A stretch of 64,000 nucleotides of DNA from an uncultured Acidobacteriota bacterium (lineage in GTDB: Bacteria > Acidobacteriota > Terriglobia > Acidiferrales > UBA7541). How positions within the stretch are numbered: the stretch's first letter is position 1; every line of letters starts with the position of its first letter. The position numbers and the translations under genes were made by a program. The stretch covers positions 205,372 through 269,371 of the forward strand of contig CAWJVF010000003.1 of NCBI GenBank assembly GCA_963846235.1, given 5' to 3'. This document shows positions 17,953-64,000 of this stretch, piece by piece. The notes beneath the pieces were generated by a model that made no database searches, was not told the origin of the DNA, and saw only the letters and a program-made list of their open reading frames with translations.

Positions 17953-17983
17953 AAAAGTGACTATAGCATTACGAATAGGGGCG

Positions 17984-18523
17984 TTAGTTACGGCGCTCTG
18001 GCCGTATATACGGAACCTGCAATAGTGAGAACAATTCTTGCTCGGTGCTCGCTCTTAACAGTTGACCGTTTGCATCTTCGATTCCATCACCTGAGGCACG
18101 CAGTTTCATTCCAAGCTCTCTCGCTCTCTGAGCCAACTTAATGTTGTGTTCCTTACTACCCGTGCGGATGAGAAGCAATGTTGTCCAAGTTTCCGGTGTT
18201 GCGATGTAGAGGTCCACGGGAATTCCAGTTTTTGCCGCTATGAAGCACTTTATCTTCTCCTTGCCACGTACCTCGGTTAGGCTACCTCGCTCAACGAGCT
18301 GCCGTAAGATTTGATCAATCGGCGTTTCGTCTCCCAGAACAAACTGGTCCGAGCCTCTTTGTGGTATCAGAACAATGTCGATATCGTGGACGGTGGGGCT
18401 ACCCCGACGCAAGGATCCTGCGATCTCGATGAGGTGAGAGACTGGCCTCAATTCCTCGACGATTAGGCGTGCCACCGCTAGTGCAATTGCCGCCGGAAAT
18501 CTTGTGGTTTCGGCCAAGATCAT
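17984..18523 (-). CDS. mini family-X (Pol beta-like) nucleotidyltransferase, palm plus thumb only
   Basis: GSLRRGSPTVHDIDIVL (GS motif plus DxD), PVDLYIA (third Asp), RTGSKEHNIKLAQRA and C-terminal EQELFSLLQVPYIRPERR match bacterial PolX cores. No 8-kDa, fingers or PHP domains. Confidence 0.7.
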   Translation of the reverse strand: MILAETTRFPAAIALAVARLIVEELRPVSHLIEIAGSLRRGSPTVHDIDIVLIPQRGSDQFVLGDETPIDQILRQLVERGSLTEVRGKEKIKCFIAAKTGIPVDLYIATPETWTTLLLIRTGSKEHNIKLAQRARELGMKLRASGDGIEDANGQLLRASTEQELFSLLQVPYIRPERRN

Positions 18524-20121: not shown

Positions 20122-21318
20122 ATGAAACCGCGCTGCTTGTTTTGGCATTCGGTGATCGGCTTCTTCGCGTTCGTCTTAATGATTTTGAGTGGCAGTCAAA
20201 CAGCGGAGGCGCAGGGCGCACAAAACGGATTACCTCAAATCACTGAGTTGAAGGCAATCTCATTCCAGAAGACAAACGCGCTCAATGTCACATCGCTCTC
20301 GTACCAAGATTTGGCAAACACGATCAGGTTAGCTGAGGACTACACCCGCGGGAACCAAGCACTTTCGGGTTATCACGAGCCGGTGCTTACACGCGGTGCC
20401 ACAGGAGTCGCGGTATTCAGAAACGTCTCGCCAAGCGTCGTACTCATCGTCGTAGGCAACGATAAAGACGTCACTGGCCTGGGCGCTGGCGTGATACTAA
20501 ATCAATCCGGCAATATATTAACGAATTGGCATGTAATCACTGGCACAACGTCTGGAATCGCATTCCTGAAGCCTCAGGGAAGCGCGGACGTCGCAAATAG
20601 TACTGCCTACGGACTCCGGCTAATCGCTCAAGACGAAACTTTAGACCTCGCCCTTCTTCAGATTGTAAAACCGCCTACTGATCTGCATCCAGTCGCGATG
20701 GGAAATATTTCCTTGGTCCAGATCGCGCAAGATATACACGTGATCGGTCATCCCGAAGGTAATCTATGGTCGTACAGCACTGGCGTCGTCAGCCAGATAA
20801 GGGATAATTACGAGTGGTCATACACTGACGGCTCAAAGCACAAATCCAAAGTACTTCAACTGCAAACCGCGATTAATCCTGGGAACTCTGGCGGGCCTGT
20901 TGTTGACGATCAGGGACGACTCCTTGGGTTGGTAGCTATGAGCCAAGAGGGCCAGAATCTGGATTACGCCGTTGCAGCTGATGTTATTCAGGGGTTCCTT
21001 CAGACGGCGGTCTCAAGCCGCGCCAGAGGCGGTGCCAGCGAAGGATCTGGTCAGCACGCCGAATATTCATCTGGTCGTCTACAGGATGGCCGACCCGTCC
21101 TGAAAGCTGTGTACCCAGACTTTACTGAGTATGTGGTTACGGATCAGAATGGGAAAGCGGTCGAACTCGCTCTTGAGACATCGGCCGGCGTGCGTCTTGT
21201 GGGTTCGGAGCCGAACTCGTTTTCTGGATTCAAAGAATGGTTAATTACACTGCCAAACGGAGCTTCAGTCCGAGCACAAGGGAACGGTGCGATTCCCGAT
21301 CACTTCAGCGCCAGATAA
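20122..21318 (+). CDS. secreted trypsin-like (S1C/HtrA-type) serine protease without PDZ
   Basis: Catalytic triad contexts TNWHVI, DLALLQI and GNSGGPVVD. N-terminal signal peptide. Confidence 0.85.
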   Translation: MKPRCLFWHSVIGFFAFVLMILSGSQTAEAQGAQNGLPQITELKAISFQKTNALNVTSLSYQDLANTIRLAEDYTRGNQALSGYHEPVLTRGATGVAVFRNVSPSVVLIVVGNDKDVTGLGAGVILNQSGNILTNWHVITGTTSGIAFLKPQGSADVANSTAYGLRLIAQDETLDLALLQIVKPPTDLHPVAMGNISLVQIAQDIHVIGHPEGNLWSYSTGVVSQIRDNYEWSYTDGSKHKSKVLQLQTAINPGNSGGPVVDDQGRLLGLVAMSQEGQNLDYAVAADVIQGFLQTAVSSRARGGASEGSGQHAEYSSGRLQDGRPVLKAVYPDFTEYVVTDQNGKAVELALETSAGVRLVGSEPNSFSGFKEWLITLPNGASVRAQGNGAIPDHFSAR

Positions 21319-26371: not shown

Positions 26372-26475
26372 TGCTGAAGTTCGTGGCCAAGAGGGTATCA
26401 CCTAACGGGCGAGTCATGGTACGGCACTGGTACGTGCGGCGGATGGGACACCCGACTCTGCGTTATTACTATCCG

Positions 26476-30185: not shown

Positions 30186-30371
30186 TTACTTGCTTAGTCT
30201 TTCGCTCTCCTTTCTTGCGGCTATGATTTTGTCGGCGTACTTGCGCCGAACTTTCGCAACTCCTGACAACAGTTCCGCCAACGACGGCATCTCGCCAGCG
30301 GCAATCAGGCGTTCCGCTTCACGTCGCAGTCGGCGTCTGTCGGATCGCTTAAGTTTCGGTTGGCTCACCAT
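30186..30371 (-). CDS. small basic hypothetical protein (third of three)
   Basis: Internal start MVSQPKLKRSDRRRLRRE of the 171-aa track ORF. The start codon shares one base with the preceding stop codon. Confidence 0.35.
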   Translation of the reverse strand: MVSQPKLKRSDRRRLRREAERLIAAGEMPSLAELLSGVAKVRRKYADKIIAARKESERLSK

Positions 30372-30637
30372 CAATGCACCGCCGTCGATGCTGGCTGTTC
30401 GGGTTTCGGCGTCTCCCAAAATAATTCTCGGCCAATCAAAGCAATGATTGCGCCTGCGGTGCTGCCGCAGCCGCCCATAGAGTTGGTGTCGCCAAAAAGC
30501 GCGAACAACAAGCTCATGATGTCGCACAAAGGCAGCCCCGGCAGTTCTTTGGGGTCGATATCGAAAGCCCGACCTAAGCGAGCCTCTAACGCGGTGCGAA
30601 GTCGTACGTAAATTATCTTTTGAGTTTCTAATTTCAT
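30371..30637 (-). CDS. small hypothetical protein (second of three)
   Basis: 88 aa. ATGA overlap upstream and TGATG overlap downstream. Confidence 0.4.
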   Translation of the reverse strand: MKLETQKIIYVRLRTALEARLGRAFDIDPKELPGLPLCDIMSLLFALFGDTNSMGGCGSTAGAIIALIGRELFWETPKPEQPASTAVH

Positions 30638-30882
30638 CGACGCACCTCCAAACCCGACTCACGAATCCCTTCGAGAATCGGGCCGAAGTGGCGAGGCTCA
30701 ATTACGATGGTCGGGTAATACGGCTGGTAGCCGTTGTCACGTCCGATATGTTCGTGAATCCAGTTGCGGGCGGGTTCGGTGCAGGGAGTTAAGAGAAGAA
30801 TTGAGCCTTCATCTTGAATGGTGAAATCAGGACCGCTTGAAGGTGAGGTACCGCTCGATTGAAATTCATTTTTGTGGGTCAT
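30634..30882 (-). CDS. small hypothetical protein (first of three overlapping genes)
   Basis: 82 aa. ATGA overlap with the next ORF. Confidence 0.45.
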   Translation of the reverse strand: MTHKNEFQSSGTSPSSGPDFTIQDEGSILLLTPCTEPARNWIHEHIGRDNGYQPYYPTIVIEPRHFGPILEGIRESGLEVRR

Positions 30883-31343
30883 TCGTTTTTGCTCCTTTAG
30901 AGCCGCATCGTTTTACCACCGCGTCGGTTGAGGAAACCGCTCGGTTGGTGGAGGCTTTAGCCTCGCTCTGGATGCGTAATTTGTGAAGTTTATCAGCAGT
31001 TCATCAGAAAACCTATCGTTATGTTCGCACGCGATACTTGCAGCTGGCTTGACGATACTGACTTTCTAGTAGTAACCTAGTCTTCAGCATCAAGAGTAGC
31101 CCGCAAGGGCGACGCCAAACGCGCCAGCGCAACGCTGGAACCGTTGGACAAATGATGCGCCTGAAAAGGAAGCCTTATGAGAAAAAATCCCCAGACGCTC
31201 GCTGGTTCCGACCTGCCGCGCACGAATATTGCGCCGCCCTCTCACGAAGAACTTGAACCGCAGGAACTATCGACGCTGCTCAAATTGCTGATTAAAGAGG
31301 CGCTGAAGGCACGCGGAATCGAAACACGCGGGAAGAAAAATCA

Positions 31344-34549: not shown

Positions 34550-34849
34550 ATGAAAATTGAAGGTCGGCTGTGTAACTGGAATTCGCGCAAGCTTTTCGGG
34601 GTTGTTGAAGTCCGGATTCGCGAAGGCGTGGGTTATAGATTTGAAAAGTATTTTTTGACCCAGTCGCATGTTGTCTATTCGGCTGTGGAACCACCGGAAG
34701 AAGGATGCATCGTTCTCTTTACGCCCAGAACGTTAGGCAAGCTGCGACCGGGCCTGCTGCCGACTGCAACTGAGGCAGAGATTTTTGAAAGCTTGGAACA
34801 GATGAAAGCTGTGATCAGCGAGAAAGGCGGCGAAGGAAGTGTATCGTGA
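34550..34849 (+). CDS. small hypothetical protein coupled to the primase gene
   Basis: 99 aa. GTGA overlap with the start of 34846..37107. Confidence 0.45.
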   Translation: MKIEGRLCNWNSRKLFGVVEVRIREGVGYRFEKYFLTQSHVVYSAVEPPEEGCIVLFTPRTLGKLRPGLLPTATEAEIFESLEQMKAVISEKGGEGSVS

Positions 34850-37107
34850 TTCGCACATGGATGGCAGAAGATCAAGCACGTATTGACGCAGTGTTTGCGA
34901 AAACGGCGGCAGTAGCTGAACCGGTCACAGAAGTTAAAGTGACCCACGGGATTGCTGTGTCAAGCGAAGCGAGAACAGCGGGACTGTCGACGGCGATACA
35001 GACGCCATTAGACGGAGCCTTGCACGTCGCATCGAAAGCTGTGCCACAGATCCCATTGAAGCCCAGGACGAAGATCGCATTCTCGAACGACTGGCCGAGT
35101 ATGGCGACAACCGATCCGGCGCAGCTGAATGCGTGGGCCATTCAGTATCCTAATTGCAACTTTGCCGGCGTTGCTCTGGCTCAGCCCAGTGGTATCTGGA
35201 TATTTGAAATCGATAATCAGGAAGCGGCCAAAGCTCTCAGCGTTCCCAAACTACCAAGGACGTTTCGTGTTCGCAGTCGTCCTGGTCGCGGGCACATCTA
35301 TTTCCGGCACAACGCCGCGAGTATTGCGTTGGCCGCCTCAACTGACAAGGCGTACATCAGTATCAAAGACACCAATGGTAAGGAGATCGCGTCGGCTCGC
35401 CTGAATCATGCCTACTGTGTCAGCGCGGGTTCGACTCATCCAGATACTCAGCTGCCGTACGAGATCGTCAACGATGTCGATCTGATCGAAGCGCCGCAGG
35501 AATTGATCGACTGGATTCGTGAGCATACCGCGCAGGATAAGAAACTGCCAGCGACGGCCAGCAGTGATGGCCCCCGTGTACCCAGAGGTTCGCATGACGT
35601 CGAGCTTACTAGGATAGCGGGCGCACTGCGTGCGAAAGGATTAACCGAAGAAGAGATGTTGCCGGTGCTCATTCGTAACGTCGAAGAAAGATTTGATGAT
35701 TACGGAAATGATTACATCTCCATGTGTGAAAAGGTAGCTCACAGCATCGGTAAGAAACCAGCTGGAACTTCCTCGATTCCATTGACAAGCAATGGCAAGA
35801 CTGCTGAGCAGATCATGCAGGACGCTCAGCCGGTTCTGATGGTTACGGACGAGGCTGTTCCCGAGGAAGTAGATGAAAACTCGGAGGCTGCTATACCGCC
35901 GTTTGATCGAAGCGTGATCAACGGCATCTACGCCGACTTCGTCGATCTTGTCACCCGTGGAACTACACTGAATCCACAATTCGCCTATGCCATTGCGAAG
36001 ACCATCGTCGGCATCCGCATGGCAGGCAAAGTCCGATTCGAGGATCTGGATGTTGAGCCGCGATTCTATACCGCGCTAATCGGGGAGACTGGCACCGGCA
36101 AAGGCGAAGCATGGCGAAGGACGTACCAAATCCTCACTGCGCCGGGTGCATTAAGCGGTTACGGATTCAAGGTAACGAACGATGCCGACTCAGGCGCGGG
36201 ATTGAAAGATCTGTTCTTTCCCTCATCGCCGAAGACATCAATGGTTGGTTGGAATCCCGAAGCTGTTCTTTGCTACGTGGACGAAATCACTACACTTGGG
36301 CACAAGTCATCGGATACTCGTAATCCTGGCATTCTCGATGAGATGATCACGCTCGCGAATAGCACGTCGATTACGCGGTCGCTGTGTGAGCGCAATGGCG
36401 GCAATCGGAGCACTGATCGGGCGCGGCTTGCCATCGTGATGTGTGGGCAGAGTGGCGAAGTCTTCATAAAAGCGTTCGCCGGACGAACTAAACTCGGGTG
36501 GTATGACAGAATTACTCCTGAGTTCGGAGTTCCTGTTGAAGTCGGGGATTTGCCCCCGATTGACACAATAGCTGCCATTAATTTGGTGCAGAAACTCAAC
36601 GCGCTCGATTACTCGGGCACGATGACAATGTCACCGGAAGCGAAGGCGCTCTTGGACGAATGTTGGAATGCGCAATCGGCTAAGACCAAGAGCAAGGCGC
36701 GGTGGCGCAGCAACCTGAAACTGGAAGCCTACATGTCCGCCTTCGGGCGCGGCCTCAAGGTGGTGGAACCGGAAGACGCCACGGTCGCCATCAAGAACTT
36801 CGAACGGCAACTAATCATTCGAAGGGTCTGCTTCACAATGGATGCGCCGGATAGGGTCGGCTACTATCTCGGGCTGATCAAGCGGATCACCCAACACATG
36901 ACCGAACAGCTAGCGGCTGGGACGCCGCCGGACCGAGTTGCCAAGAGCAGGCGTGACTACGAGACGGCAACGAACGCACACAGGGACAACGAAGAGCACA
37001 TCTTCGCCAAGGCATGGGAGACGCATTCCCGCGTCTGGCTGGAACCTGTGACGGTCCGGAAGACGAATGGTCATCGGTACACGAAGTATCTCCCCGTCGT
37101 CGAGTGA
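34846..37107 (+). CDS. bifunctional DNA primase-polymerase / helicase-type replication protein
   Basis: Prim-Pol motifs IWIFEIDNQE and RSRPGRGHIYFRH. PriCT-like segment PRGSHDVELTRIAGALRAKGLTEEEM. Walker A-like IGETGTGKGE in the C-terminal half. Iterons lie immediately downstream. Confidence 0.8.
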   Translation: MIRTWMAEDQARIDAVFAKTAAVAEPVTEVKVTHGIAVSSEARTAGLSTAIQTPLDGALHVASKAVPQIPLKPRTKIAFSNDWPSMATTDPAQLNAWAIQYPNCNFAGVALAQPSGIWIFEIDNQEAAKALSVPKLPRTFRVRSRPGRGHIYFRHNAASIALAASTDKAYISIKDTNGKEIASARLNHAYCVSAGSTHPDTQLPYEIVNDVDLIEAPQELIDWIREHTAQDKKLPATASSDGPRVPRGSHDVELTRIAGALRAKGLTEEEMLPVLIRNVEERFDDYGNDYISMCEKVAHSIGKKPAGTSSIPLTSNGKTAEQIMQDAQPVLMVTDEAVPEEVDENSEAAIPPFDRSVINGIYADFVDLVTRGTTLNPQFAYAIAKTIVGIRMAGKVRFEDLDVEPRFYTALIGETGTGKGEAWRRTYQILTAPGALSGYGFKVTNDADSGAGLKDLFFPSSPKTSMVGWNPEAVLCYVDEITTLGHKSSDTRNPGILDEMITLANSTSITRSLCERNGGNRSTDRARLAIVMCGQSGEVFIKAFAGRTKLGWYDRITPEFGVPVEVGDLPPIDTIAAINLVQKLNALDYSGTMTMSPEAKALLDECWNAQSAKTKSKARWRSNLKLEAYMSAFGRGLKVVEPEDATVAIKNFERQLIIRRVCFTMDAPDRVGYYLGLIKRITQHMTEQLAAGTPPDRVAKSRRDYETATNAHRDNEEHIFAKAWETHSRVWLEPVTVRKTNGHRYTKYLPVVE

Positions 37108-38416: not shown

Positions 38417-39022
38417 TCAGGCGTTTACAGCCTCTGGGAAATGAGGTTTTTTGAACGCTGCCGCATGGACCGTGCCGACCGAGATGCCGAGGGTCTGGGC
38501 AATGGCTTTGTAGGACAGCCCCTGCTTACGCAGGGAGCCTATCTGGGCGACGTTTACAGCGGCTTTTGGTCTGCCTAACCGGCGACCCTTCGCCTTGGCG
38601 TTGCGCAGCCCTGCCCGAATGCGTTCTCGGGTCAATTCACGTTCCATTTGACCCACGGCTCCAAGGATCGTGAACACCATCTTTCCGACTGGGGTGCTGG
38701 TGTCGATGGATTCGGTAAGGCTAATGAACTCGATCCCGAGGGATTGGAATGTTTCCAACGCTCGCAACAGATGAGATGTTGAACGTGCGAACCTGTCAAA
38801 CTTCCAGACCGCGACCGCATCAAAGCGGCGTTTGTGAGCGTCAGCCATTAGACGGTTTAATTCGGGTCGGCTGTCTTTTGAGCCGCTGATGCCATTGTCA
38901 ACATATTCGCTAACGATTTCCCAGCCACGACGCTGAAAATGTTCTCGGAGTTCACGCAATTGGAGTTCGCTGTCCTGACCGTGATTGCTGGTGCTGATTC
39001 TGGCGTACAAAGCAGTTCGCAT
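38417..39022 (-). CDS. small serine recombinase (resolvase/invertase family) with C-terminal HTH
   Basis: ALYARISTSNHGQDSELQ (catalytic Ser context), FDAVAVWKFDRFARS, C-terminal GLSYKAIAQTLGISVGTV. The track start at 39028 is a GTG. ATG at 39022 used here. Confidence 0.85.
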   Translation of the reverse strand: MRTALYARISTSNHGQDSELQLRELREHFQRRGWEIVSEYVDNGISGSKDSRPELNRLMADAHKRRFDAVAVWKFDRFARSTSHLLRALETFQSLGIEFISLTESIDTSTPVGKMVFTILGAVGQMERELTRERIRAGLRNAKAKGRRLGRPKAAVNVAQIGSLRKQGLSYKAIAQTLGISVGTVHAAAFKKPHFPEAVNA

Positions 39023-39024
39023 GG

Positions 39025-39186
39025 TCACCTCAGGCCGAGTTTCAGCCGGATGTAATCGCTGACGGACATCTTGACTTCGCGGGCAGCCCGCTCAAGCGCC
39101 TTACGGTCAGCAGGCTTCAGCCGCAGTATAACGAAACGGCTCTGCCGCTCAGTTGCCTTTATTGACGGTCTTCCCATCTTCGCCAT
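39025..39186 (-). CDS. ribbon-helix-helix (CopG/MobC-like) small DNA-binding protein
   Basis: Below the track size cutoff. My translation is MAKMGRPSIKATERQSRFVILRLKPADRKALERAAREVKMSVSDYIRLKLGLR, a typical RHH strand-helix-helix pattern. The stop codon abuts the recombinase start. Confidence 0.55.
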   Translation of the reverse strand: MAKMGRPSIKATERQSRFVILRLKPADRKALERAAREVKMSVSDYIRLKLGLR

Positions 39187-44103: not shown

Positions 44104-45568
44104 CTACTGCTTTCGTGGCGCGTGGTGATCGGCTCCATTCTGATGAAGGATCAACTCTATCGCTCGTCCGCTGCTATCAGTCACAAACGTAAGCTCTGCG
44201 TTGACGATTGTCGCAAAAAATTGATGATCATTCTCCGGGAATATCTCTACCGGTTTTTGCCCCGTCGCTTGGGTCATGAAGTGATCGCCGTCACGCGTAA
44301 CCGTCATGACGAAATCAGGCGCTAATTGATAAGTGCCGACATACGTATCGAAAACATTGGGATCAATCTTGCTGATGGAATACAGCCCAGGCTGGAAATC
44401 CGGCCATTTGTATTCGAACGCGATTGTACTGACAATGTCCTCGGCAAGCTGGCCCCCGCTATCGCCGTTTGTCATCACCACGGCCCCATCGCCGCTGTCA
44501 TAAGCGACGAGGTAGCATTGATAGCCCTCATTCGAGCCACCATGTGCGAATAACGGATGTTCCTTGCCGCCGACTTGTAGGCCCAAACCCCAATCGCCCA
44601 TCCCCGGAGCTAGCATTTGACGCACCATGGTAGTGGAGAGCACGTGGTTCGACTTGCCTGACAACGCGTTTTGTATCTCCAGGGCAAAGAGGGCAAGATC
44701 CGAAGCCGTAGTCCACAGGCCGGCGGGTGCCATTTCCGGATAAACATGCGGCCCGTCTGCTATCGGCAGACCGTTGCGATCGTAAGGAATTGCCACCTCC
44801 GCCATCCGGGCAGGCGGGAGCGGCTGTTCGTAGGTGCTGTTTCATGCCGATTGGATCCAGCACCAACTCATGCATGATTTGGGGGAAGGGCTTGCCAGCC
44901 ACATCTTCCAGTAACTGCTGCGTGATCACGTACCCCCCGCCAGAATATCTCCAGATAGTCGCGGGCTCTACGTCCACGCGAATCGGTGGACTATTGGCCG
45001 GCTTCTCGCCATTCAAAACTTGAACTAGTGTTGGCAGCTGCTCGCCCGAGGCATACCCGCCAAATCCATGCACGGTGGTACCAGCGGTATGGCTGAGCAA
45101 CTCACGGAGCGTTACCTTTTTCTTGTCAGTAAATTCGTTCTCCGGCACCTTCCAGGTTTTGAGATATTCATTCACATCGTGATCAAGGTTGAGCTTTCCA
45201 GATTCGACCAGACGTAGCACAGCCATTGCCGTTACAGGCTTGCTGATTGAAGCCGCTTGAAAGAGAGTCTCGGAGGTAACTGCCGCTCCTCCGGCCTTTG
45301 TTACACCGAAGCCCTGAGCGCGTTCAATTTTCCCTTGATGAATCACAGCAACGCTTGCACCTGGAACGTGCAGTTCCTGCATCCGATCTGCGAGTTTCCT
45401 TGTTTGGCTCGACAGACTTCGGCCATTAATGAGCACAGGTGGCAGGAGGCTATCCTGGATGCGCTGTTCAATCGTGGTGTGTGTGTCGGTGATCTGAGCC
45501 GCGAACAAACCCGTTGCGATGAAGGCAACAACAGGGGCGGAAACCAAGGCTGTACGGGAGGAGGACAT
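44104..45568 (-). pseudogene. beta-lactamase-family serine hydrolase with C-terminal extra domain, frameshift near 44838-44842
   Basis: Signal peptide, SxxK as ASISKPV and HGG triad element. The frame breaks right after PIGMK at an AAA run and resumes as STYEQPLPPARMAEVAIPY. AGGAG precedes the ATG at 45568. Confidence 0.8.
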
Positions 45569-45669
45569 TTGGCGCTCCTTTGATTGATCGGAGTGGCCCT
45601 TATTTGTCCGGTCGTAATGATAGCTCAGATTGACTGTCGTTTTAGCACGCCACACGAGCAATGCGCCTT

Positions 45670-50490: not shown

Positions 50491-50563
50491 GGCACTGCGT
50501 ATCGGCACCTGGCTTTTTCGGCGATTCCCAGTTGCCGAGAATGCCGTTTTTCGGGAGTTAGAA
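50491..50563 (+). repeat. cassette-type repeat copy A
   Basis: TATCGGCACCTGGCTTTTTCGGCGATTCCCAGTTGCCGAGAATGCCGTTTTTCGGGAGTTAGAA aligns almost base for base with copy C. Confidence 0.7.
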
Positions 50564-50597
50564 CAGTTCGTTTGGAGGTGAGTCTCACCAGAAACAA

Positions 50598-51773
50598 CTA
50601 TCGCGCTGGCCAATTCCATGCGGGAAGGTCCATTTTCTTCATCCCCGCAATTGAAGTTTCGCCGAGGTTCTTTTCAAGCGTGATCGAATGGCAAGGAGCC
50701 TGATCCCGGAGAGCCACGATAAGCGGCGCTGCGTGCGTCACGACAACGATTTGTGTGCGTTTAGATGTCTGCGCAATCAAGCGCCCAAGCGGGGGCAGAA
50801 GGTCTGGGTGGAGGCTTGTCTCAGGCTCATTCAACACCATTAATGCGGGCGGTCTTGGGGTTAAGAGTGCGGCAATCCAAAGTAAGTACCGCAGCGTCCC
50901 GTCCGAAAGTTCCGCAGCATCCAAGGGTCTCAGCAATCCATGCTGTTCCATCGTCAGGGCAAATCGCCCGGAGTTAACCTCTATGGACAAACGACTGCCC
51001 GGAAAAGCGTCTGCGACAGCAGCAGCCAGTGCCTCACCGTCGCCAATCTCGCGGATAGTCTGAACCGCTGCTGCGAGATCGGCTCCGTCGTTACCGAGCA
51101 CTGGAGTGTGCGTACCAATCTGGGGAGAGCGCGCTGGTGCATCGGCATCTGTGCTGAAGTGGTCGTAGAAACGCCAGGCGCGTATGGATTCGCGCAGAGT
51201 TAACATCTCCGGTGCGTTTCTGGGATCGGCAACGTGAGTCATCATGCTATCGAAAGCGGAGAGGTGATCCGTCACCAGATTCCAGTCTTGCCCATCTCCA
51301 CGAATGCGCACGAGAGGTCCCTCCCGATCCACCAGCATCGTCGAGGGGCGAAGCGTTGGCCCATGCCAAATGCACTCGCGCTTAATCTCAGGATCAAGCA
51401 TGAACGCCGAAGGCTTCGCTTTGTCGTAGGCGGGCAAACCCAGGTCAATCAAATATCCGAACTCGTCGCCTGCAAAGCCGAGCCGAAGGTTTACCGGCTT
51501 CTTTCGTCTGGTGCCTTGAACGGGATACTCGCCCTTCTTCATAGAACGCGAAATCGATTCAGGACCAGCCCAAAGCGTCGATTGAAGGCCACCTTCGTGG
51601 GCCAGTGAGGGAACTACTCGGCCTTGCGCCGTGTCCGCCAGAAGTCGCAGTGCCCGGTAGAGACTCGATTTCCCGGTTCCGTTCGCGCCAGTGATGACGT
51701 TCAGCAACTGCAGGGGAATAATGAGATTCCGCAAGGAGCGATAGTTGCCGATGGCAAAGGTCGTCAGCATCAA
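50598..51773 (-). CDS. ABC/SMC-like ATPase (AAA_21-type) without a nuclease domain
   Basis: Walker A ITGANGTGKSS near the N-terminus. Walker B and D-loop LMVLNEPETSLHP. 391 aa. Confidence 0.8.
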   Translation of the reverse strand: MMLTTFAIGNYRSLRNLIIPLQLLNVITGANGTGKSSLYRALRLLADTAQGRVVPSLAHEGGLQSTLWAGPESISRSMKKGEYPVQGTRRKKPVNLRLGFAGDEFGYLIDLGLPAYDKAKPSAFMLDPEIKRECIWHGPTLRPSTMLVDREGPLVRIRGDGQDWNLVTDHLSAFDSMMTHVADPRNAPEMLTLRESIRAWRFYDHFSTDADAPARSPQIGTHTPVLGNDGADLAAAVQTIREIGDGEALAAAVADAFPGSRLSIEVNSGRFALTMEQHGLLRPLDAAELSDGTLRYLLWIAALLTPRPPALMVLNEPETSLHPDLLPPLGRLIAQTSKRTQIVVVTHAAPLIVALRDQAPCHSITLEKNLGETSIAGMKKMDLPAWNWPAR

Positions 51774-51802
51774 AGGTGATCGATCTTGGGAGTTCTAGGA
51801 AA

Positions 51803-53167
51803 CTATTGGATGGGAATTTGCGGACCGCCCAACAGTTTTGCATTCAGTAAGCCACCGGAGAAAAGCATTTCGTCCAAAGCCGAAGTCAGATCGTCGAGCG
51901 TGAGCTGCCCAGCCTGATAATTGTCTAAGGAAAACTGTGCCGAGCGGCGCATGAGTTCCTTGATGAAGGCGCCGCTTGCATTTTCTGTACGGCGCACGAT
52001 CTCTTGAACCACATTTTCAGGAACCTGGAGACCGCAGGCGTAAAGATGCACAAGTTGTCGGCGCCCTGCGGCGTCGGGCAGAGGGAACTCAATCGCCTGG
52101 TCGATCCGGCCCGGGCGCGATGCGATAGCGGCTTCGAGTTGTTGCGGGCGGTTGGTTGTAAGGACGAAGATTACCTCCGCGTCTTCGCGCAGACCATCCA
52201 TCTCATTTAGAAGCTTGTTTAATAGACTTTCCTCACAGGCACTGTCCATGGATTCACGAGAGCGGGCGATAAGATCGACGTCTTCGATGACAACGATGGA
52301 GGGTTGAAGGAACCTAGCGAGTTGGAAATAATGATCTAGCAGACCTACCTGTTCAGCGGTGATCAAAAGCGTAGTGTGATCGGGCAGTTGGCTCGCCAGA
52401 TAGTGAATTGTGTGAGTTTTCCCGGTTCCAGGCTGGCCATAAAAGAGCAAGCCCTTCTTAACGGGCATTCCAAGCTTTCTCAGTTCCCCGCGTTGTCTAA
52501 TGAATTCGGAAACGTTGCGTTCCAGCAACTGAAGAGTCTTGGCAGGGAGAACTAATTCACGACGGCTCACAGAACGGAGTTTGTGAACACGGACGCTGCC
52601 GGCTTGGCCAGAGTAATTGTCCGTCTGCTCTAGAGATATTACCTTTCCACGGTACGAAGTGGCGCGTTTAACGAGTTTCTCGATCTCGTCGAATAGCCGA
52701 CGTGAGAGAGCGGCACCCTCTTCACCGGGTGGCACAGCAATCTCCAGATGCGTCCCACTGTCACGGCCATAATTGATCGCAGGGGTGAGTAAAAGTGCAA
52801 ACCGAAGGTCGTTGCTCCTGGACAGCCAAAGACCATTGCTCAAACAGCGCGCAGGCACTAGTTCACCGATATCGACTTCGAAATGTTGTAGAGGTGCAAC
52901 GAGTGCTGGGTAATTGTCGATTGTCAGAAGCTCGGAGAATGTCATCGTTTCATGTCCGAAACGCCGGTGCAGGCCGATCAGCTCGGCCGTAAATTCTTCC
53001 CCAAATATTTTGGTGACGGCGAACTGCAGGTCAATCCGCGCAGAGACTGGAAATTTGCGACTAGCCGTAACCAACTGCTCTAGAGGCTGCTTCCTGAAAT
53101 GTCGCGCTAGTCTATGCGCAACGAGTGGTGGTGCGTTCGTTTTCTTGTTTCGCTTTGGGGTTCTCAC
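51803..53167 (-). CDS. classical AAA+ ATPase with a novel ~230-aa N-terminal domain
   Basis: Walker A GQPGTGKT, Walker B IVVIEDVD, second region of homology TTNRPQQLEAAIASRPGRID. The start is uncertain. GTG at 53167 was chosen because the 585-aa track ORF would overlap repeat copy B and the next gene. Confidence 0.75.
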   Translation of the reverse strand: MRTPKRNKKTNAPPLVAHRLARHFRKQPLEQLVTASRKFPVSARIDLQFAVTKIFGEEFTAELIGLHRRFGHETMTFSELLTIDNYPALVAPLQHFEVDIGELVPARCLSNGLWLSRSNDLRFALLLTPAINYGRDSGTHLEIAVPPGEEGAALSRRLFDEIEKLVKRATSYRGKVISLEQTDNYSGQAGSVRVHKLRSVSRRELVLPAKTLQLLERNVSEFIRQRGELRKLGMPVKKGLLFYGQPGTGKTHTIHYLASQLPDHTTLLITAEQVGLLDHYFQLARFLQPSIVVIEDVDLIARSRESMDSACEESLLNKLLNEMDGLREDAEVIFVLTTNRPQQLEAAIASRPGRIDQAIEFPLPDAAGRRQLVHLYACGLQVPENVVQEIVRRTENASGAFIKELMRRSAQFSLDNYQAGQLTLDDLTSALDEMLFSGGLLNAKLLGGPQIPIQ

Positions 53168-53227
53168 ACTAATATTTTGCCGTATGCGGCCAAAATGGGA
53201 AGTGTTTTGGGATGAGTACACACTCAA

Positions 53228-53287
53228 TTGACAACCTGTGGGAGCGCGGAAAGTCACATTCCGATAATCCCGTTTCTCAGGCGCTAT
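53228..53287 (+). repeat. cassette-type repeat copy B
   Basis: Right arm CACATTCCGATAATCCCGTTTCTCAGGCGC. The left arm is degenerate. Confidence 0.6.
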
Positions 53288-53320
53288 CTCGACCCCACAT
53301 GTGACGGCTATACTTTTCTG

Positions 53321-53980
53321 ATGGAGCAGCCCATTCACGTTGACCTGACCACAGCCTCGCTTGACGAGTTCGTCCTGTTTCTTTTTGACCGAGAGATACC
53401 CGCTTATTCTCAAAAGCAAGAGCCGTGGTATTGGCATGTGGAAGTGGAATTTGATGCAGCGAAGATCTGCACCTATTACGTGCAGTTGTTTCTGCAGCCG
53501 GAATTTCTGCTGACGCGTTTCACAAAACCTCAGCTTGAAGAAGGCTTCTGGGCCGTACAAGGCCCGAATCTAAGCTGTTCCGTGCAAAGGCTAATCGAAG
53601 ACTCAAGCCTACCGTTATCGCGTCGGGAAGAATGCATCCGTTCCATGTTTGATTTGTACAAGCGTCTTTTTGCGACGAAGCCACTGGATACTTCAGTTCA
53701 GATGTGGTGGGACTCCTTATGCTACGACTGGCATTGCGGGAACAAACAGCGCGAGCGGGGTGGTGAGGATTTGGAATTGCAAGAAGTCTTTTTTCAAACT
53801 CTCGTTAGGGTGCTTTCGATTGACTCAGAGATTTGTCAGCAAGCGGCCCTTCATGGATTGGGTCATCTCCATCATCCACAAACGGCGGAACTCATCGAGC
53901 AGTATCTTCGAGAACACCCTTCGTTACCGAAAGAGCGCAAAGAATATGCCCTTGCCGCTGCTAGGTTTGAGGTGCAGTAA
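53321..53980 (+). CDS. hypothetical cassette protein
   Basis: Start MEQPIHVDL just after copy B. 219 aa. Copy C begins 36 nt after the stop codon. Confidence 0.55.
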   Translation: MEQPIHVDLTTASLDEFVLFLFDREIPAYSQKQEPWYWHVEVEFDAAKICTYYVQLFLQPEFLLTRFTKPQLEEGFWAVQGPNLSCSVQRLIEDSSLPLSRREECIRSMFDLYKRLFATKPLDTSVQMWWDSLCYDWHCGNKQRERGGEDLELQEVFFQTLVRVLSIDSEICQQAALHGLGHLHHPQTAELIEQYLREHPSLPKERKEYALAAARFEVQ

Positions 53981-54015: not shown

Positions 54016-54099
54016 CGAACTCCTGATAAGTCTTATCGGCAACTGGATTTTTCGACGATTCGCAGTTGCCGAGAATCCCGTGTTCCTCCAAGGTTGGCT
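54016..54099 (+). repeat. cassette-type repeat copy C
   Basis: CGAACTCCTGATAAGTCTTATCGGCAACTGG, 16-nt loop, GCAGTTGCCGAGAATCCCGTGTTCCTCCAAGGTTGGCT. The arms are imperfect reverse complements. Confidence 0.75.
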
Positions 54100-54619: not shown

Positions 54620-54700
54620 CTCCTTATAAGTCGCATTTCCGAAACCTGGCTCTAGGCAGAAAAGCCAGTTAGCGATAATCCCGTTTTCCGGGACTTGGGC
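54618..54700 (+). repeat. cassette-type repeat copy D
   Basis: AACTCCTTATAAGTCGCATTTCCGAAACCTGGCT, loop, AGCCAGTTAGCGATAATCCCGTTTTCCGGGACTTGGGC. 18 of 32 arm positions pair. Confidence 0.75.
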
Positions 54701-54889
54701 TTACAATGTTTCCCATGTCCTCCGGAGGTCTAGCTCCTGGTATTTGCTTTATTCTCGCTGCGGGCCGTTGCGGCGATCTCTCTGTGTGGCGTTAGGGTTC
54801 GCGATTCGAGACGCCGGCTATAGGCTGCCTAATGCGAGGGTATTCGTTGCGGCTGGCAATCACGCGAATATCCCTGACCGGGCTGTAAT

Positions 54890-55938: not shown

Positions 55939-56013
55939 ATAAGTCCTGTGAAGTCGGGTTCTCGGAAACTGGGATTTCCCGCATTCCGAAGATCGCGTCT
56001 ATCGGGAGGTGGT
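55939..56013 (+). repeat. cassette-type repeat copy E (uninterrupted reference for the IS target)
   Basis: GATAAGTCCTGTGAAGTCGGGTTCTCGGAAACTGGGATTTCCCGCATTCCGAAGATCGCGTCTATCGGGAGG. Confidence 0.75.
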
Positions 56014-56334
56014 ATCGGGCTGCATTGAATCACTTCTTTTGTGGTTGGTTCTCGAATAAAAGTACCCTGATAGGGCTAGAGCCAAAGAAATAAGCGCAAC
56101 AAGTGCGATCCATTCGTCACGCGGATGCTGTAGCTGATAAGGAATATAAGGGTGGTTAGTCTGAAGGTCACACGACATGTTTGAATAGTCGAAACTCCCG
56201 TGAAGAGCAGACAGGCATCGGTCGACCATCAGCCATTCACGCGAAAAACGATAGGTGACAGAGATTAGAGCGCCCCCAGCAAGGAAGGCGAGAATCAGCC
56301 GCCAACATATCCTCATGATCGAATGAGACACCAT
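55999..56334 (-). CDS. small integral membrane protein
   Basis: Hydrophobic segments ICWRLILAFLAGGALISV and WIALVALISLALALSGYF. The start is uncertain (56334, 56316 or 56403). Confidence 0.45.
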   Translation of the reverse strand: MVSHSIMRICWRLILAFLAGGALISVTYRFSREWLMVDRCLSALHGSFDYSNMSCDLQTNHPYIPYQLQHPRDEWIALVALISLALALSGYFYSRTNHKRSDSMQPDTTSR

Positions 56335-56398
56335 TCTTGCCCTACAAGTTCCCCAAAACGTCAGGAGATCGTCGAAAGCATAACCTTTGGCAAACGAT

Positions 56399-56428
56399 GC
56401 CAAGTCCTGCTAAGTCGGTTTTTCGGAA
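56399..56428 (+). repeat. cassette-type repeat copy H, left arm (split by IS copy 1)
   Basis: GCCAAGTCCTGCTAAGTCGGTTTTTCGGAA aligns with the left arms of copies D and E. Confidence 0.75.
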
Positions 56429-56676
56429 TGTATGGTCCGCCGCCGAGTTGCAAGCGGAAAGATGAGCTTGGCAGTTGGTCTGCGCCAATGTATTCGGCCT
56501 TTGGTGGAGTCAATGACTCCTGGCCTTGATGGACATCCGCTCGCCTTCGCCCCTATAAACTGGACGGTCTGGTTAGGACCTTTTCCGAAAGCAGGTTCCG
56601 AAAGCGTGGGATCGACCCATTGCCATCAACTCTCCGCAAGCAAACCGGGAAGGAACTTTTTTCTAAACCGGGATTT
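56429..56676 (-). ncRNA. candidate bridge/seek guide RNA locus in the IS 3' non-coding end
   Basis: 248-bp non-coding end conserved in both IS copies. It contains two TTCCGAAAG motifs (56583-56591, 56596-56604) and AAACTGG (56557-56563) matching the target core, and AATGTAT (56487-56493) matching the IS left junction. No structure was computed. Confidence 0.35.
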
Positions 56677-57708
56677 TTAGGTGGACACAGCAAGGACGGG
56701 AGCGCGATAGCGTTCCCCCTTGCACAACACGGCCCAGGCCATTCGGACTAGCTTATTGGCCAACGCTACGATGACCACGTTCTGGTGTTTGCGAGCCAAC
56801 AATTGAGCCAACCACGAACTGAGACCCGGAGCCTGCCGGTGTCGCTGCTGCAGGACGCTGCGTGCGCCCTGCACGAAGAGTCGTCGTAGGTAGGAGTTGC
56901 CGCGTTTGCTGATGCCCAGTAAGGTTTGCTTTCCTCCGCTGGAATGCTCGCCGGGCACCATGCCGATCCAGGCCGCTAGGTCTCGACCTCTGCCAAACGC
57001 ACTCCCGTTACCCACGGCAGCGATCACGGCGGTGGCCGTGACTGGGCCCACTCCTGGGATGGTGGTGAGTCGCTGGCAGGCCTCATCCTCTTTGGCTCTT
57101 TCCAGGATAGCCACATCCAGCTGATCAATGCGTGCGGAGAGTTGCTCGAGTTCCAGCTTCAGCTGAGCCAACAACAGCCGAAACGAACCCGATAACGGCA
57201 ACTCGGCATCTTCCAAGATCCGCGGCAGAGCTTCCTCCACATAACGTCGGCCTTTGGGTAGTGTCAATCCACGTTCTAGAAGAAGACTGCGGATCTGGTT
57301 GACCACCGCCGTGCGTCGCATGACCCAGCGTTCCCGCACGCGATGCAGCGTTTGCAAATCCAGCTGCTCCTCGCTCTTAATTGGCACAAAACGCATCCGC
57401 GGCCGTTGCACTGCTTCGGCTATAGCTTCCGCATCGATGTAGTCGCTCTTGTTGGTCTGCACGTACGGCTTCACGTACTGCGCGGGCATCAATCGCACGT
57501 CGTGTCCCTGATCGCGCAGAGCGCGGCCCAGAAAGTGCGAGCCACTACAAGACTCCATGCCAATCAACTGCACTTGCAAAGTCGCGGTGAAGGCCAACAA
57601 CTGCCCGCGGGAACATCTCTTGCGAATTACCACCTTCCCAGTCGAATCCAAACCCACCAGATGGAAAACGGTCTTACCCAAATCGATGCCGAGTACGTGA
57701 AGTTTCAT
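56677..57708 (-). CDS. IS110 family DEDD transposase/recombinase
   Basis: MKLHVLGIDLGKTVFHLVGLD N-terminus and C-terminal IPGVGPVTATAVIAAVGNG...GISKRGNSYLRRL motif. AGGAGG upstream of the ATG at 57708. Confidence 0.9.
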   Translation of the reverse strand: MKLHVLGIDLGKTVFHLVGLDSTGKVVIRKRCSRGQLLAFTATLQVQLIGMESCSGSHFLGRALRDQGHDVRLMPAQYVKPYVQTNKSDYIDAEAIAEAVQRPRMRFVPIKSEEQLDLQTLHRVRERWVMRRTAVVNQIRSLLLERGLTLPKGRRYVEEALPRILEDAELPLSGSFRLLLAQLKLELEQLSARIDQLDVAILERAKEDEACQRLTTIPGVGPVTATAVIAAVGNGSAFGRGRDLAAWIGMVPGEHSSGGKQTLLGISKRGNSYLRRLFVQGARSVLQQRHRQAPGLSSWLAQLLARKHQNVVIVALANKLVRMAWAVLCKGERYRAPVLAVST

Positions 57709-57769
57709 GGAATGCCTCCTGGCCCCGGACTCTACACTCAAAGAGTCTCGGCGGCGGACCATCCCATTA

Positions 57770-57822
57770 ACTGGGATTTCCGAATCCCACATTCCGAAAA
57801 TCCCGTTTGTCAGGAGTTGGCT
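57770..57822 (+). repeat. cassette-type repeat copy H, right arm
   Basis: ACTGGGATTTCCGAATCCCACATTCCGAAAATCCCGTTTGTCAGGAGTTGGCT. The outer end CAGGAGTTGGC is the complement of the left-arm start GCCAAGTCCTG with one mismatch. Confidence 0.75.
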
Positions 57823-57949
57823 TTAGTCAAGTGAGACTGTACTTCGGAACAGTATAGGTTTCGACAGTGATTCAGGACTTTAATCTCAAAGCCTCACTCT
57901 CCCAGTTAAAATCGACTCTCGTGGCGATTCGCAGGCGGAGGGACGACGA

Positions 57950-58432
57950 ATGAATGCGACCCAAACGATGACATCTCCCGTCCACACGGCTCACAAGCCT
58001 ATTCGAGTGTTTTGGAAATGGTCTTTCTTCATCACGGCCATAGTGCTTGCTTTCTTTATGTGGCAGTGCGGTTCGGGACTCCTTCAGGGTCGGCGTTCGT
58101 CGAACGAGGCCGTTCGACAATTCCACCAACAGCTAAATGCTGGTGAGTATGAGCTAATCTGTCAGGAAGCCAGCGAGGGCTTTACGCGTTCGGCCAAACA
58201 CGATGAATTAGTGAACTTCCTCAATGGGGTGCATACGAAACTCGGCTCTGCAGCAAGCGAAAGCCTCCTCAATATCGGCGTCAATGCGAATACAAACGGA
58301 ACTTTCATCACCACTCGCTATAACACGCAATTCGCAAATGGGTCAGCTGTTGAGACATTCACTTGGATAAAGTCAGCGGGCACCTTGAAACTACACGGAT
58401 ACAACGTGCAGTCTCAAGCGCTCCTCAAGTGA
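57950..58432 (+). CDS. membrane-anchored hypothetical cassette protein
   Basis: N-terminal TM segment FWKWSFFITAIVLAFFMW. 160 aa. Confidence 0.5.
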   Translation: MNATQTMTSPVHTAHKPIRVFWKWSFFITAIVLAFFMWQCGSGLLQGRRSSNEAVRQFHQQLNAGEYELICQEASEGFTRSAKHDELVNFLNGVHTKLGSAASESLLNIGVNANTNGTFITTRYNTQFANGSAVETFTWIKSAGTLKLHGYNVQSQALLK

Positions 58433-59216: not shown

Positions 59217-60546
59217 TGTATGGTCCGCCGCCGAGTTGCAAGCGGAAAGATGAGCTTGGCAATTGGTCTGCGCCAATGTATTCGGCCTTCAGTGGAGTCA
59301 GCGACTCCGGGCCTTGATGGACATCCGCTCGCCTTCGCCCCTATAAACTGGACGGTCTGGTTAGGACCTTTTCCGAAATCAGGTTCCGAAAGCGTGGGAT
59401 CGACCCATTGCCATCTTTCCGCGAGCAAACCGGTGAGAGAACTGTTTTCTAAACCGGGGTTTTAGGTGGCAAGAACGGGAGCGCGATAGCTTTCGTTCTT
59501 GTACAACACCGCCCAGGCCATTCGGACCACCTTATTAGCCAGTGCTACGACGACAACATTCTGGTGTTTGCGAGCCAGCAATTGCGCTAGCCAGGAGCTA
59601 AGACCGGGAGCCTGCCGGTGTCGTTGTTGCAAGACGCTGCGGGCGCCTTGTACGAAGAGGCGTCGCAAGTAGGAGTTACCTCGCTTGCTGATGCCCAGTA
59701 ACGTTTGCTTTCCGCCGCTGGAATGCTCGCTCGGCACCATGCCGACCCACGCCGCCAAATCTCGGCCCCTTTTAAAAGCGCTTCCGTTACCAACCGCAGC
59801 AATCAGAGCGGTGGCAGTGACTGGGCCCACTCCTGGAATCGCGGTGAGTCGCTGACAGGCGTCATCCTCTTTGGCTCTTTTCAGGATGACTGCATCCAGC
59901 TGATCGATGCGTGCGGAGAGTTGCTCGAGTTCCAGCTTCAGCTGAGCCAACAGCAGCCGAAACGAGCCCGCCAGCGCAACTCTGCATCTTCTAGGATCCG
60001 TGGCAAGGCTTCCTCCACATAACTTCGGCCCTTGGGTAATGTGAATCCGCGTTCCAAAAGGAGGCTGCGGATCTGGTTCACTACGGCCGTGCGTCGCATC
60101 ACCCAACGCTCACGCACTCGATGGAGAGCTTGCAGATCCAGTTGCTCTTCCGACTTGATCGGCACAAACCGCATCCGCGGCCGTTGCACCGCTTCCGCTA
60201 TAGCTTCCGCATCGATGTAATCGCTCTTGTTGGTCTGCACATAAGGTTTCACGTACTGCGCGGGCATCAACCGCACCTGGTGCCCCTGATCGCGCAGAGC
60301 GCGGCCCAGAAAATGCGAGCCACTACAAGACTCCATGCCAATCAACTGCACTTGCAAATTCGCGGTGAAGGTCAGTAACTGTCGGCGGGAACATCTCTTG
60401 CGAATCACTACCTTCCCAGTCGAATCCAAACCCACCAGATGGAAAACCGTTTTACCCAGGTCAATGCCGAGTACATGTAGTTTCATGGAATGCCTCCTGG
60501 CCCCGGACTCTACACTTCAAAGTCTCGGCGGCGGACCATCCCATTA
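59217..60546 (-). mobile_element. IS110 family insertion sequence, copy 2 (about 1.33 kb), defective
   Basis: Collinear with copy 1 across its whole length with scattered substitutions. Same ends (TGTATGGTCCGCC ... GGACCATCCCATTA). Confidence 0.85.
59462..60486 (-). pseudogene. IS110 family transposase, frameshifted
   Basis: Split into 182-aa and 214-aa ORFs. Compared with copy 1 there is a 1-bp deletion in the segment encoding AELPLSGSF (about 59975-59990). Confidence 0.85.
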
Positions 60547-60600
60547 ACTGGCTTTCCGCTGATTTCCAGTTGCCAAAAATCCCGTTTCGCAGGACTCGTG
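60547..60600 (+). repeat. cassette-type repeat copy I, right arm
   Basis: ACTGGCTTTCCGCTGATTTCCAGTTGCCAAAAATCCCGTTTCGCAGGACTCGTG. Confidence 0.75.
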
Positions 60601-60829
60601 CATCCCGGCAAGAACAAACTTCCAGCTAATCGTTCTGTTCCACTTCCATTGTCAGCCTAGCACAGCCAGTGCGAAACTGTAAGGCTGCGCTTACGAGCGG
60701 AATTCACCAGAGTGCCTCACTGGCGATAACGATGGTCCCAATCGGCTAGGTCTATACTAAGGCCCGTTTTAGCGTCACACGGTTTTTATATCTCCGGCGG
60801 GTTGTCATAGCAGGTTCGTCGCCGAACAT

Positions 60830-63805: not shown

Positions 63806-63872
63806 GCATTCCCGAAGTGTGGCCCGGCTGAAATCCCAGTTTCCGGAAATCCCGTTTCTCAGGCACTAGGAT
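63800..63872 (+). repeat. cassette-type repeat copy G
   Basis: GACTAGGCATTCCCGAAGTGTGGCCCGGCTGAAATCCCAGTTTCCGGAAATCCCGTTTCTCAGGCACTAGG. Confidence 0.7.
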
Positions 63873-64000
63873 TCGCCCCCTGAAGTGACAGTCCATCCGC
63901 TACGGTCACGGCTAGGCAAGCAAGCATTCAGGGGCTGCCCGCTATCGTGCGAAATTGCTTCTGAGATAGAATCCCCGCTGCCCGGAGGCTGTTTTTATGC

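Follow-up and report, generated by a model that had tools for sequence, protein, structure and literature searches.

A mobile pair of ATPase genes between attC-like repeats in an uncultured acidobacterium: a possible protein-remodelling module

What would two ATPase genes do together, alone between two repeats of a cassette array? The question is raised by a stretch of 64,000 nucleotides (the window, in what follows) from an uncultured soil bacterium of the Acidobacteriota, lineage UBA7541 (contig CAWJVF010000003.1, positions 205,372 to 269,371, of assembly GCA_963846235.1). Here the interval between two copies of a repeat, A and B, holds just two genes according to the listing of open reading frames (ORFs), both on the minus strand, as an earlier first-pass annotation of the sequence had stated, and both intact. 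One encodes an AAA+ ATPase and the other an ABC-type ATPase, and that annotation had put them forward as a candidate defence or conflict system. The reading that we favour, with a probability of roughly 45%, is that the two ATPases of the cassette are functionally linked and form a facultative module that uses ATP to remodel proteins, as a chaperone or an assembly factor would. We prefer protein remodelling to nucleic-acid-targeting immunity because there is no effector domain, the AAA+ protein has a predicted fold of the chaperone type and its relatives are found in respiratory and redox operons.

A two-gene cassette that moves as a unit

The two-gene pair is a mobile, repeat-bounded cassette. 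The two proteins encoded by a metagenome contig (L006) are 98% and 92% identical to those of the window pair, and the contig aligns to window positions 50516..53281 (2777 nt, 92.6% nucleotide identity), that is, exactly from repeat A to repeat B, while the flanks are unrelated. Since only this repeat-to-repeat block is shared, the pair moves as a unit. The pair of L006 is flanked on both sides by the same repeat and in the same relative orientation as in the window, and this homology, together with the seven plus-strand repeats of the array, bears out the earlier description of a reverse-oriented cassette bounded by repeats. Nucleotide similarity to another contig (L100, 82%) runs through the leader to 53248, and that to L006 reaches 53281. 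Strong purifying selection acts on both: dN/dS between the window and L006 is 0.069 for AAA+ and 0.127 for ABC. Their synonymous divergence is unequal (dS 0.13 against 0.31), which suggests recombination within the pair. Elsewhere (L007:7825-9259), an ABC gene 86% identical to that of the window stands alone between two repeats of the same family, beside a cytochrome P460 gene; a P460 gene is also located near the pair of L006.

The limits of both genes could be set by comparison with homologues. The ABC ORF encodes 391 aa when read from a TTG (50598..51773) and 390 aa from the ATG at 51770, and we take the ATG as the start because the homologues begin MLTT. The AAA+ ORF is open over 51803..53560, and a GTG at 53167 gives a protein of 454 aa; it is taken as the start because an alignment with 15, and then with 72, homologues of about 453 aa supports it. 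The distance of 29 nt between the genes reported before holds when it is counted from the TTG, but becomes 32 nt from the better supported ATG. A spacer of 32 nt implies a single operon. A promoter and terminator scan of the cassette gave nothing useful in the leader (53168..53226), where no site fits the sigma-70 consensus, and Rfam and tRNA scans found no RNA element at the cassette locus.

The two ATPases and their relatives

Pfam places PF00004 at residues 240-363 of the AAA+ protein (2.5e-23), together with AAA_lid_3, and the translation contains a Walker A motif GQPGTGKT as well as IVVIEDVD and SRPGRID. The ABC protein matches AAA_21 (1.4e-32) and AAA_15 (4e-15), with GANGTGKSS as Walker A and LNEPETSLHP in the Walker B region. 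The domain assignments of the first-pass annotation therefore stand, the motifs that it quoted are all in the translations, and Pfam agrees with it in finding no nuclease, TOPRIM or HNH domain in the ABC protein.

The AAA+ protein is made of an N-domain (ca. residues 1-215) followed by one classical AAA module. The core belongs to the classical clade and resembles the D2 domain of Cdc48/p97 (1e-43), as well as PAN and FtsH. At the sequence level, phmmer against the PDB found matches at the core only (residues 217-436), and no Pfam family, BCS1_N included, matched residues 1-230. The N-terminal domain had been described as uncharacterised, a description overtaken by structure prediction, as the model matches YjoB and Bcs1 over the whole protein. 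The AlphaFold2 model, built from 73 sequences, has a mean pLDDT of 83.6, and when it was searched against the PDB with Foldseek, YjoB took the first to third ranks (7w42, E 3.6e-18, 437 aligned columns), and next came several Bcs1 structures with full-length matches of 435-447 columns, whereas most other AAA+ proteins align over only ca. 240-350 columns. N-domain and AAA module together are thus predicted to resemble YjoB and Bcs1 as a whole fold. We had also considered a Cdc48/FtsH-type unfoldase with a random N-domain, and this was rejected because the full-length match favours YjoB/Bcs1. A bacterial AAA+ family without an assigned function hence gains a predicted structural identity (YjoB/Bcs1-like). 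The Walker B motif of the family reads E-D instead of D-E (IEDVD), and this order is probably a trait of Bcs1.

Where do the relatives of this protein live? A scan of species-representative genomes confirmed 404 of them, and the best 80 (54-82% identity) come from Acidobacteriota, Verrucomicrobiota, Planctomycetota and other phyla. The contexts are stable and tied to redox and respiratory machinery, and they are not typical of immune genes. According to the gene tree, the relatives are inherited vertically within the nuo and heme operons. In Terriglobales a homologue (64-70% identity) separates hemC from hemD in an operon of the order ccsA-like-hemA-hemC-AAA-hemD, at 8 loci of one clade, and in Verrucomicrobiota another (63-66% identical) is part of the complex I operon (nuoD-I-H-J-K-AAA-nuoL), with tight or overlapping junctions and again in one clade (Table 1). 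More distant homologues (40-45% identity) are found as solitary genes on rhizobial and Burkholderia megaplasmids, beside groEL/tlpA, fixAB or nif genes. On three rhizobial symbiotic plasmids (L181, L182, L183) the homologues (40-42%) adjoin groEL/tlpA, fixA/fixB, or fdxB and NifX-associated genes, never with an ABC partner. The first-pass annotation had allowed that the two families might match a known housekeeping pair, which would tell against its defence claim; relatives of the AAA+ gene (54-70%) do have places of this kind, in hemC-AAA-hemD and nuoK-AAA-nuoL, and they count against defence, although it is the single gene and not the pair that is found there. This genomic signature (complex I, heme operons, vicinity of fix/nif) makes it directly testable whether the family helps to assemble or maintain redox complexes.

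The ABC protein has a different profile of relatives. The best match in PADLOC is HEC-01A (PDLC04177, 4.7e-49, residues 19-386 of 391), and many other defence ABC profiles match as well. Homologues 68-99% identical are abundant in soil metagenomes, and others with 53-60% identity are found as single genes in Vibrio, Photobacterium, Pantoea, Arthrobacter and further genera; the homologue on Vibrio chromosome 2 is not within a repeat array. Against the PDB, a single-sequence search with the ABC protein gave no match and a profile search recovered only the Walker A and signature-motif stretches, while in PHROGs the matches were to families of unknown function only. The family has an invariant Asn at the position where ABC ATPases usually carry the Walker B Asp, so that the motif reads NEPE. 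Neither in the two proteins nor in their neighbours did Pfam and PADLOC detect a nuclease, protease, TIR or membrane effector domain.

Pairing, possible role and rival explanations

The pairing of the two genes is far from random. An ABC gene is adjacent in 4 of the 80 AAA+-centred genome loci, and an AAA+ gene in about 5 of ca. 50 informative ABC-centred metagenome loci; the ABC tree holds 43 solitary loci and 11 paired ones. By our own estimate, for two single-copy genes in a genome of ca. 4000 genes, chance would give about 0.04 adjacencies in 80 loci, against the 4 observed, which are spread over three clades. Among the neighbour families of the ABC gene none is more frequent than the AAA+ family, which shares first place with several lineage-specific families, at 5 loci each. 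Tandem pairs are present on contigs L006, L019, L029/L033/L091, L098, L112, L113, L170/L171 and L172-175, always with a spacer of 26-33 nt whose sequence has diverged, and the ABC protein P0164, indexed in 49 blocks of the collection, is encoded behind an AAA+ gene in every place shown. In a divergent arrangement (L010, L100 and the contig of P0021) the genes are also kept adjacent. On the P0021 contig the pair is located ca. 2-6 kb from genes for a family-B DNA polymerase (992 aa) and Cas1, a casposon-like combination, with a DUF433/DUF5615 pair nearby. The copies on L172-175 lie among PIN/MazE and PIN/Phd pairs.

The history of the association appears to be complex. In both gene trees (neighbour-joining, without support values) the paired genes are spread over three or more clades, and the branching differs between the trees: on L010 and L100 the AAA+ gene clusters with that of the window and the ABC gene with those of L029 and L091, which implies that partners have been swapped. 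On contigs of 4.3-4.7 Mb that carry the heme-operon AAA+ gene, no ABC protein was found among the best 120 matches (query P0236). Co-occurrence had been proposed as a check on the original claim, and the result has two sides, as the pair does recur elsewhere but is facultative at the frequencies given above. Altogether, the data support a link between the two ATPases that is real but facultative, each of them being able to stand alone.

The gene content, the limits of the cassette, the match in fold, the recurrence of the pair and the purifying selection are direct results, whereas the physical interaction of the two proteins, the client, the promoter and the physiological role are inferred; together they give the following outline. 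The AAA+ gene, the 32-nt spacer and the ABC gene, in this order, make up a mobile operon that is carried as a single cassette with an attC-like repeat at each end. Its transcription probably starts in the leader of the cassette and runs on the strand opposite to the small neighbouring cassettes. The AAA+ protein would be soluble and of the YjoB/Bcs1 type, so that by analogy its N-domains may form a chamber atop the AAA ring, and this chamber may hold folded or near-folded client proteins. The ABC protein, whose ATPase is related to SMC heads and to the OLD family, would form dimers with ATP and serve as sensor or adaptor, and could recruit or gate the AAA+ motor. Such a pair would not be a nuclease-based immune system. 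If the two proteins do cooperate, an ABC ATPase with a chambered AAA+ protein would be a nuclease-free composition absent from the defence-system profiles searched.

Some of the observations weigh against a remodelling module. The partner is adjacent in ca. 5-10% of the sampled loci and most homologues of each gene are solitary, so each protein is able to function when no partner lies next to it, and the two may be loosely linked. The mobile-element contexts in which pairs are found include an attC-like array with IS110, casposon-like PolB+Cas1, toxin-antitoxin-rich islands and an integrase. Conflict systems are where this kind of ABC ATPase is best known (bioRxiv 10.1101/2024.01.29.577857). 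Besides, the AlphaFold2 model of the ABC protein (62-sequence alignment, mean pLDDT 50.9, residues 1-227 below 50) is too poor to use.

It could be that there is no functional link at all, and that two mobile single-gene modules were co-captured in the same hotspots, for example as cassettes fused after the loss of an intervening repeat. The solitary ABC cassette of L007, built with the same repeat family, would fit such a scenario, as would the predominance of solitary genes on both sides, the incongruent gene trees and the dS of 0.13 against 0.31 between window and L006, which points to partly separate histories. However, the same order with a spacer of 26-33 nt is found in three or more diverged lineages in which these repeats are absent, the divergent arrangement still keeps the genes together, and the number of adjacencies is far above the ca. 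0.04 expected, all of which makes an accidental association rather unlikely. Much less credible still, and in our opinion very improbable, is an addiction module of the toxin-antitoxin kind, with one ATPase being toxic and the other neutralising it, thereby stabilising the cassette array. Reverse-oriented cassettes of chromosomal integrons are often toxin-antitoxin systems, and the company of PIN/MazE and PIN/Phd pairs on L172-175 points the same way, but the proteins are far larger than typical toxin-antitoxin components and each gene is commonly found alone, even inside essential operons, which would hardly be expected of a toxin that nothing neutralises.

Defence against phages or plasmids deserves more attention, as it was the original proposal. 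The ABC protein would detect a cue from the invader, in the manner of PARIS, Gabija or Lamassu, and the AAA+ protein would act as effector or regulator, e.g., by aborting the infection through the unfolding or sequestration of a protein of host or phage. The nearly full-length match to HEC-01A, the many other defence ABC profiles matched and the defence record of the class all speak for it. The setting does too, since integron cassettes have been reported to encode defence systems (bioRxiv 10.1101/2024.07.02.601719) and this reverse-oriented cassette is part of a 50-kb low-GC island with PDC-M30 A/B, TPR-CHAT, Trypsin_2, Prim-Pol and resolvase genes, other copies being found beside toxin-antitoxin pairs, an integrase or casposon-like PolB+Cas1. 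The distribution across phyla is patchy, with shuffled partners. Yet an effector domain is absent, and HEC-01, which is defined by its TOPRIM partner, needs that partner, absent here, and gave no protection in published assays (10.1101/2024.01.29.577857). The match of the AAA+ protein to IetA/IteA covers the ATPase core only and reaches 69 bits against a cut-off of 510. In addition, members of both families are mostly solitary, the AAA+ relatives are inherited vertically in nuo and heme operons, and the sequences are very highly conserved (amino-acid identity of 55-65% between phyla, dN/dS around 0.1). The defence claim is therefore partly supported, by the class of the ABC protein and its setting, while the sequence searches gave no positive evidence of defence, and we regard it as unlikely.

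Two further variants share elements with these explanations. One would be a nuclease-free conflict or immunity module in which an ABC sensor, with its invariant Walker B Asn, controls a chambered AAA+ effector of the Bcs1/YjoB type, repeatedly assembled and spread as an integron-like cassette among soil Acidobacteriota; this too we hold to be improbable. The other, about as novel and compatible with the former, is that the AAA+ family may be a bacterial counterpart of Bcs1 that helps in assembling respiratory and redox complexes, with the ABC protein as an accessory.

The surrounding array and comparison with known systems

Table 1. Coordinates of the cassette, of the remaining repeat copies and of operon loci with AAA+ relatives (positions without a locus name refer to the window)
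Feature	Coordinates	Strand	Evidence
Repeat copy A, attC-like imperfect palindrome, downstream cassette boundary	50500..50564	+	nhmmer E 4.3e-15; seven-copy alignment; L006 homology stops inside, at 50516
ABC-type ATPase (AAA_21/AAA_15 kind), 390 aa, without effector domain	50598..51770	-	Pfam; PADLOC HEC-01A 4.7e-49; homologues; dN/dS 0.127
Intergenic spacer, 32 nt	51771..51802	-	sequence; tandem pairs of other lineages 26-33 nt
YjoB/Bcs1-like (predicted) AAA+ ATPase, 454 aa, GTG start	51803..53167	-	Pfam; AlphaFold2; Foldseek; homologue alignment; dN/dS 0.069
Leader, from AAA+ start codon to repeat B; putative site of cassette promoter and ribosome-binding site	53168..53226	-	
Repeat copy B, upstream cassette boundary	53227..53293	+	nhmmer E 2.1e-12; L006 homology stops at 53281
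Repeat copy C	54033-54098	+	nhmmer
Repeat copy D	54636-54704	+	nhmmer
Repeat copy E	57763-57826	+	nhmmer
Repeat copy F	60540-60604	+	nhmmer
Repeat copy G	63809-63876	+	nhmmer
Terriglobales hemC-AAA-hemD loci	L001:8001-9359, L004:8001-9362; also L011, L014, L017, L022, L024, L028		
Verrucomicrobiota nuoK-AAA-nuoL loci	L035:5971-7326; also L025, L026, L030, L034, L036, L038, L039		

The cassette is part of an array. A repeat profile search of the 64-kb window with nhmmer found seven copies in the stretch from 50.5 to 63.9 kb, all on the plus strand (E 4e-15 to 7e-12) and separated by one to three ORFs. The core decamer of the repeat occurs 14 times against 4.8 expected, a number reached in none of 100 shuffles. 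The sole other match in the window is weak and inverted (55939-55983, minus strand, E 0.0013), just downstream of a minus-strand ORF (55999-56403). Two copies of an IS110-family element (56431-57763 and ca. 59219-60540, terminal inverted repeats ATGGTCCGCCGCCGAG/CTCGGCGGCGGACCAT) sit at the identical position and in the same orientation in repeats E and F. Insertion into such sites at the same position and orientation is the behaviour of IS1111-attC elements. In the second copy the transposase ORF is split (59462-60106 and 59938-60486) and hence is probably frameshifted. Rejoining the flanks of one insertion produces an 83-nt hairpin with GCCAAG.../...GTTGGC ends (dG -33, z -11).

Is this an integron? 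The first-pass annotation had assumed a chromosomal integron setting, which is unproven. The array of same-strand imperfect palindromic repeats, the cross-contig homology that stops at the repeats and the IS110 insertions are all as in integron cassettes. However, Pfam scans of a subset of 30 window ORFs found neither an integron integrase nor another tyrosine recombinase, although the array extends past the 64-kb end of the window, and the intact copies, when folded as single-stranded DNA, are weak and mostly no better than shuffled sequence. Classical attC hairpins were therefore rejected as a description of the repeats, the strong fold being found only in the site reconstituted from the IS flanks, and because of the weak folding and the lack of an integrase among the ORFs scanned we call them only attC-like. 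The locus documents in any case an attC-like cassette array in an acidobacterium that is a target of IS110-family elements.

Beyond the array, the window changes in composition at ca. 13 kb, where the GC content falls from 0.55-0.59 upstream to mostly 0.48-0.54 (range 0.48-0.56) over positions ca. 13000-64000. This low-GC part of about 50 kb looks like a large integrated or accessory island and carries a Prim-Pol gene (34846-37107), a resolvase (38417-39028), a fragment of an ATP-dependent DNA ligase and a Schlafen AlbA_2 protein, besides the cassette array. A PADLOC candidate system, PDC-M30, is present at 17125-19659 (minus strand), with component A at 18520-19659 (2.3e-81) and component B, a DUF5131 protein, at 17125-17952 (4.2e-102), separated by a 179-aa ORF. 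Nearby, a Trypsin_2 peptidase gene (20122-21318, plus strand) converges 3' to 3' on a 1691-aa TPR-CHAT gene (21326-26401, minus strand), a possible protease pair of the conflict type. A SAM-I/IV riboswitch (Rfam RF01725, 59.7 bits; 30875-30980, minus strand) is located upstream of a 171-aa ORF (30186-30701). A gene of the beta-lactamase fold with DUF3471 (44104-45661, minus strand) appears to be split into two overlapping ORFs (44528-45661 and 44104-44805) and may be frameshifted or a pseudogene. Within the array, one cassette is a DUF4019 gene (57950-58432); a DUF4019 gene (L179:8720-9271) is also found near a solitary ABC homologue on a Photobacterium plasmid, which may be a coincidence.

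How does the pair compare with systems already described? For the pair PADLOC gave single-component matches only, and the earlier remark that the pairing is not recognisable as a named system remains valid. HEC-01 consists of an ABC ATPase (HEC-01A) and a TOPRIM protein (HEC-01B), and the ABC protein of the window matches the former nearly end to end, but its partner is an AAA+ ATPase. No TOPRIM or HEC-01B protein was found in the cassette AAA+ protein or the ten neighbouring ORFs, the only weak HEC-01B match being the ABC protein itself, and membership was rejected on the absence of this partner. PARIS (AriA/AriB), Gabija (GajA/GajB) and the OLD nucleases have in common with the window ABC protein the ABC head, the Walker A and motifs of the (D/E)EPE..LHP type, but the similarity is weak and confined to motif stretches of ca. 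45 residues, and all of them carry a TOPRIM nuclease, fused or as a partner, that is absent from the cassette and its neighbours. The matches to AriA are to generic AAA_21/AAA_15 regions (47 residues only in the PDB), and no AriB-like (DUF4435/TOPRIM) gene exists in the cassette or among its neighbours, so that PARIS was rejected. So was Gabija, as the match to GajA covers only residues 1-48, the 390-aa ABC protein has no TOPRIM domain and the cassette has no helicase gene. The AAA+ protein, for its part, matches the profiles of IetA, from the IetAS/IteAS system of AAA+ protein and protease, at 9e-22 in PADLOC and 4e-19 in NCBIfam, but the match is confined to residues 200-414, with a score of 69 bits for NF042959 against the curated cut-off of 510. 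There is no IetS serine protease between the repeats and the neighbouring ORFs have no PADLOC matches. Below the cut-off, limited to the ATPase core and lacking IetS, the pair was not accepted as a member.

For the remodelling module that we favour, the closest comparisons are with two chambered or translocating AAA+ proteins. YjoB of B. subtilis is reported to be a substrate-specific chaperone, conserved in Bacilli, that forms a chambered hexamer and prevents the aggregation of the catalase KatA and of GapB (PMC9565160). No other structure matches the AAA+ model better (PDB 7w42/7w46, TM 0.51/0.57), and, like the window protein, YjoB is soluble and has a single AAA module and a distinctive N-domain of ca. 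200 aa. Unlike in the window, no ABC partner has been described for YjoB, and the two proteins have only ca. 20% sequence identity, with no sequence-level match of the N-domain in Pfam or by phmmer against the PDB. Mitochondrial Bcs1/BCS1L (PDB 6sh3, 8t14, 9gs2) matches the fold over its full length (435-447 columns) with modest TM-scores of 0.34-0.48, and differs in that the window sequence has no apparent N-terminal membrane anchor and no match to BCS1_N. Bcs1/BCS1L is the translocase of the folded Rieske protein in the assembly of Complex III, and the relatives of the window AAA+ protein likewise occupy respiratory-chain and heme biogenesis operons.

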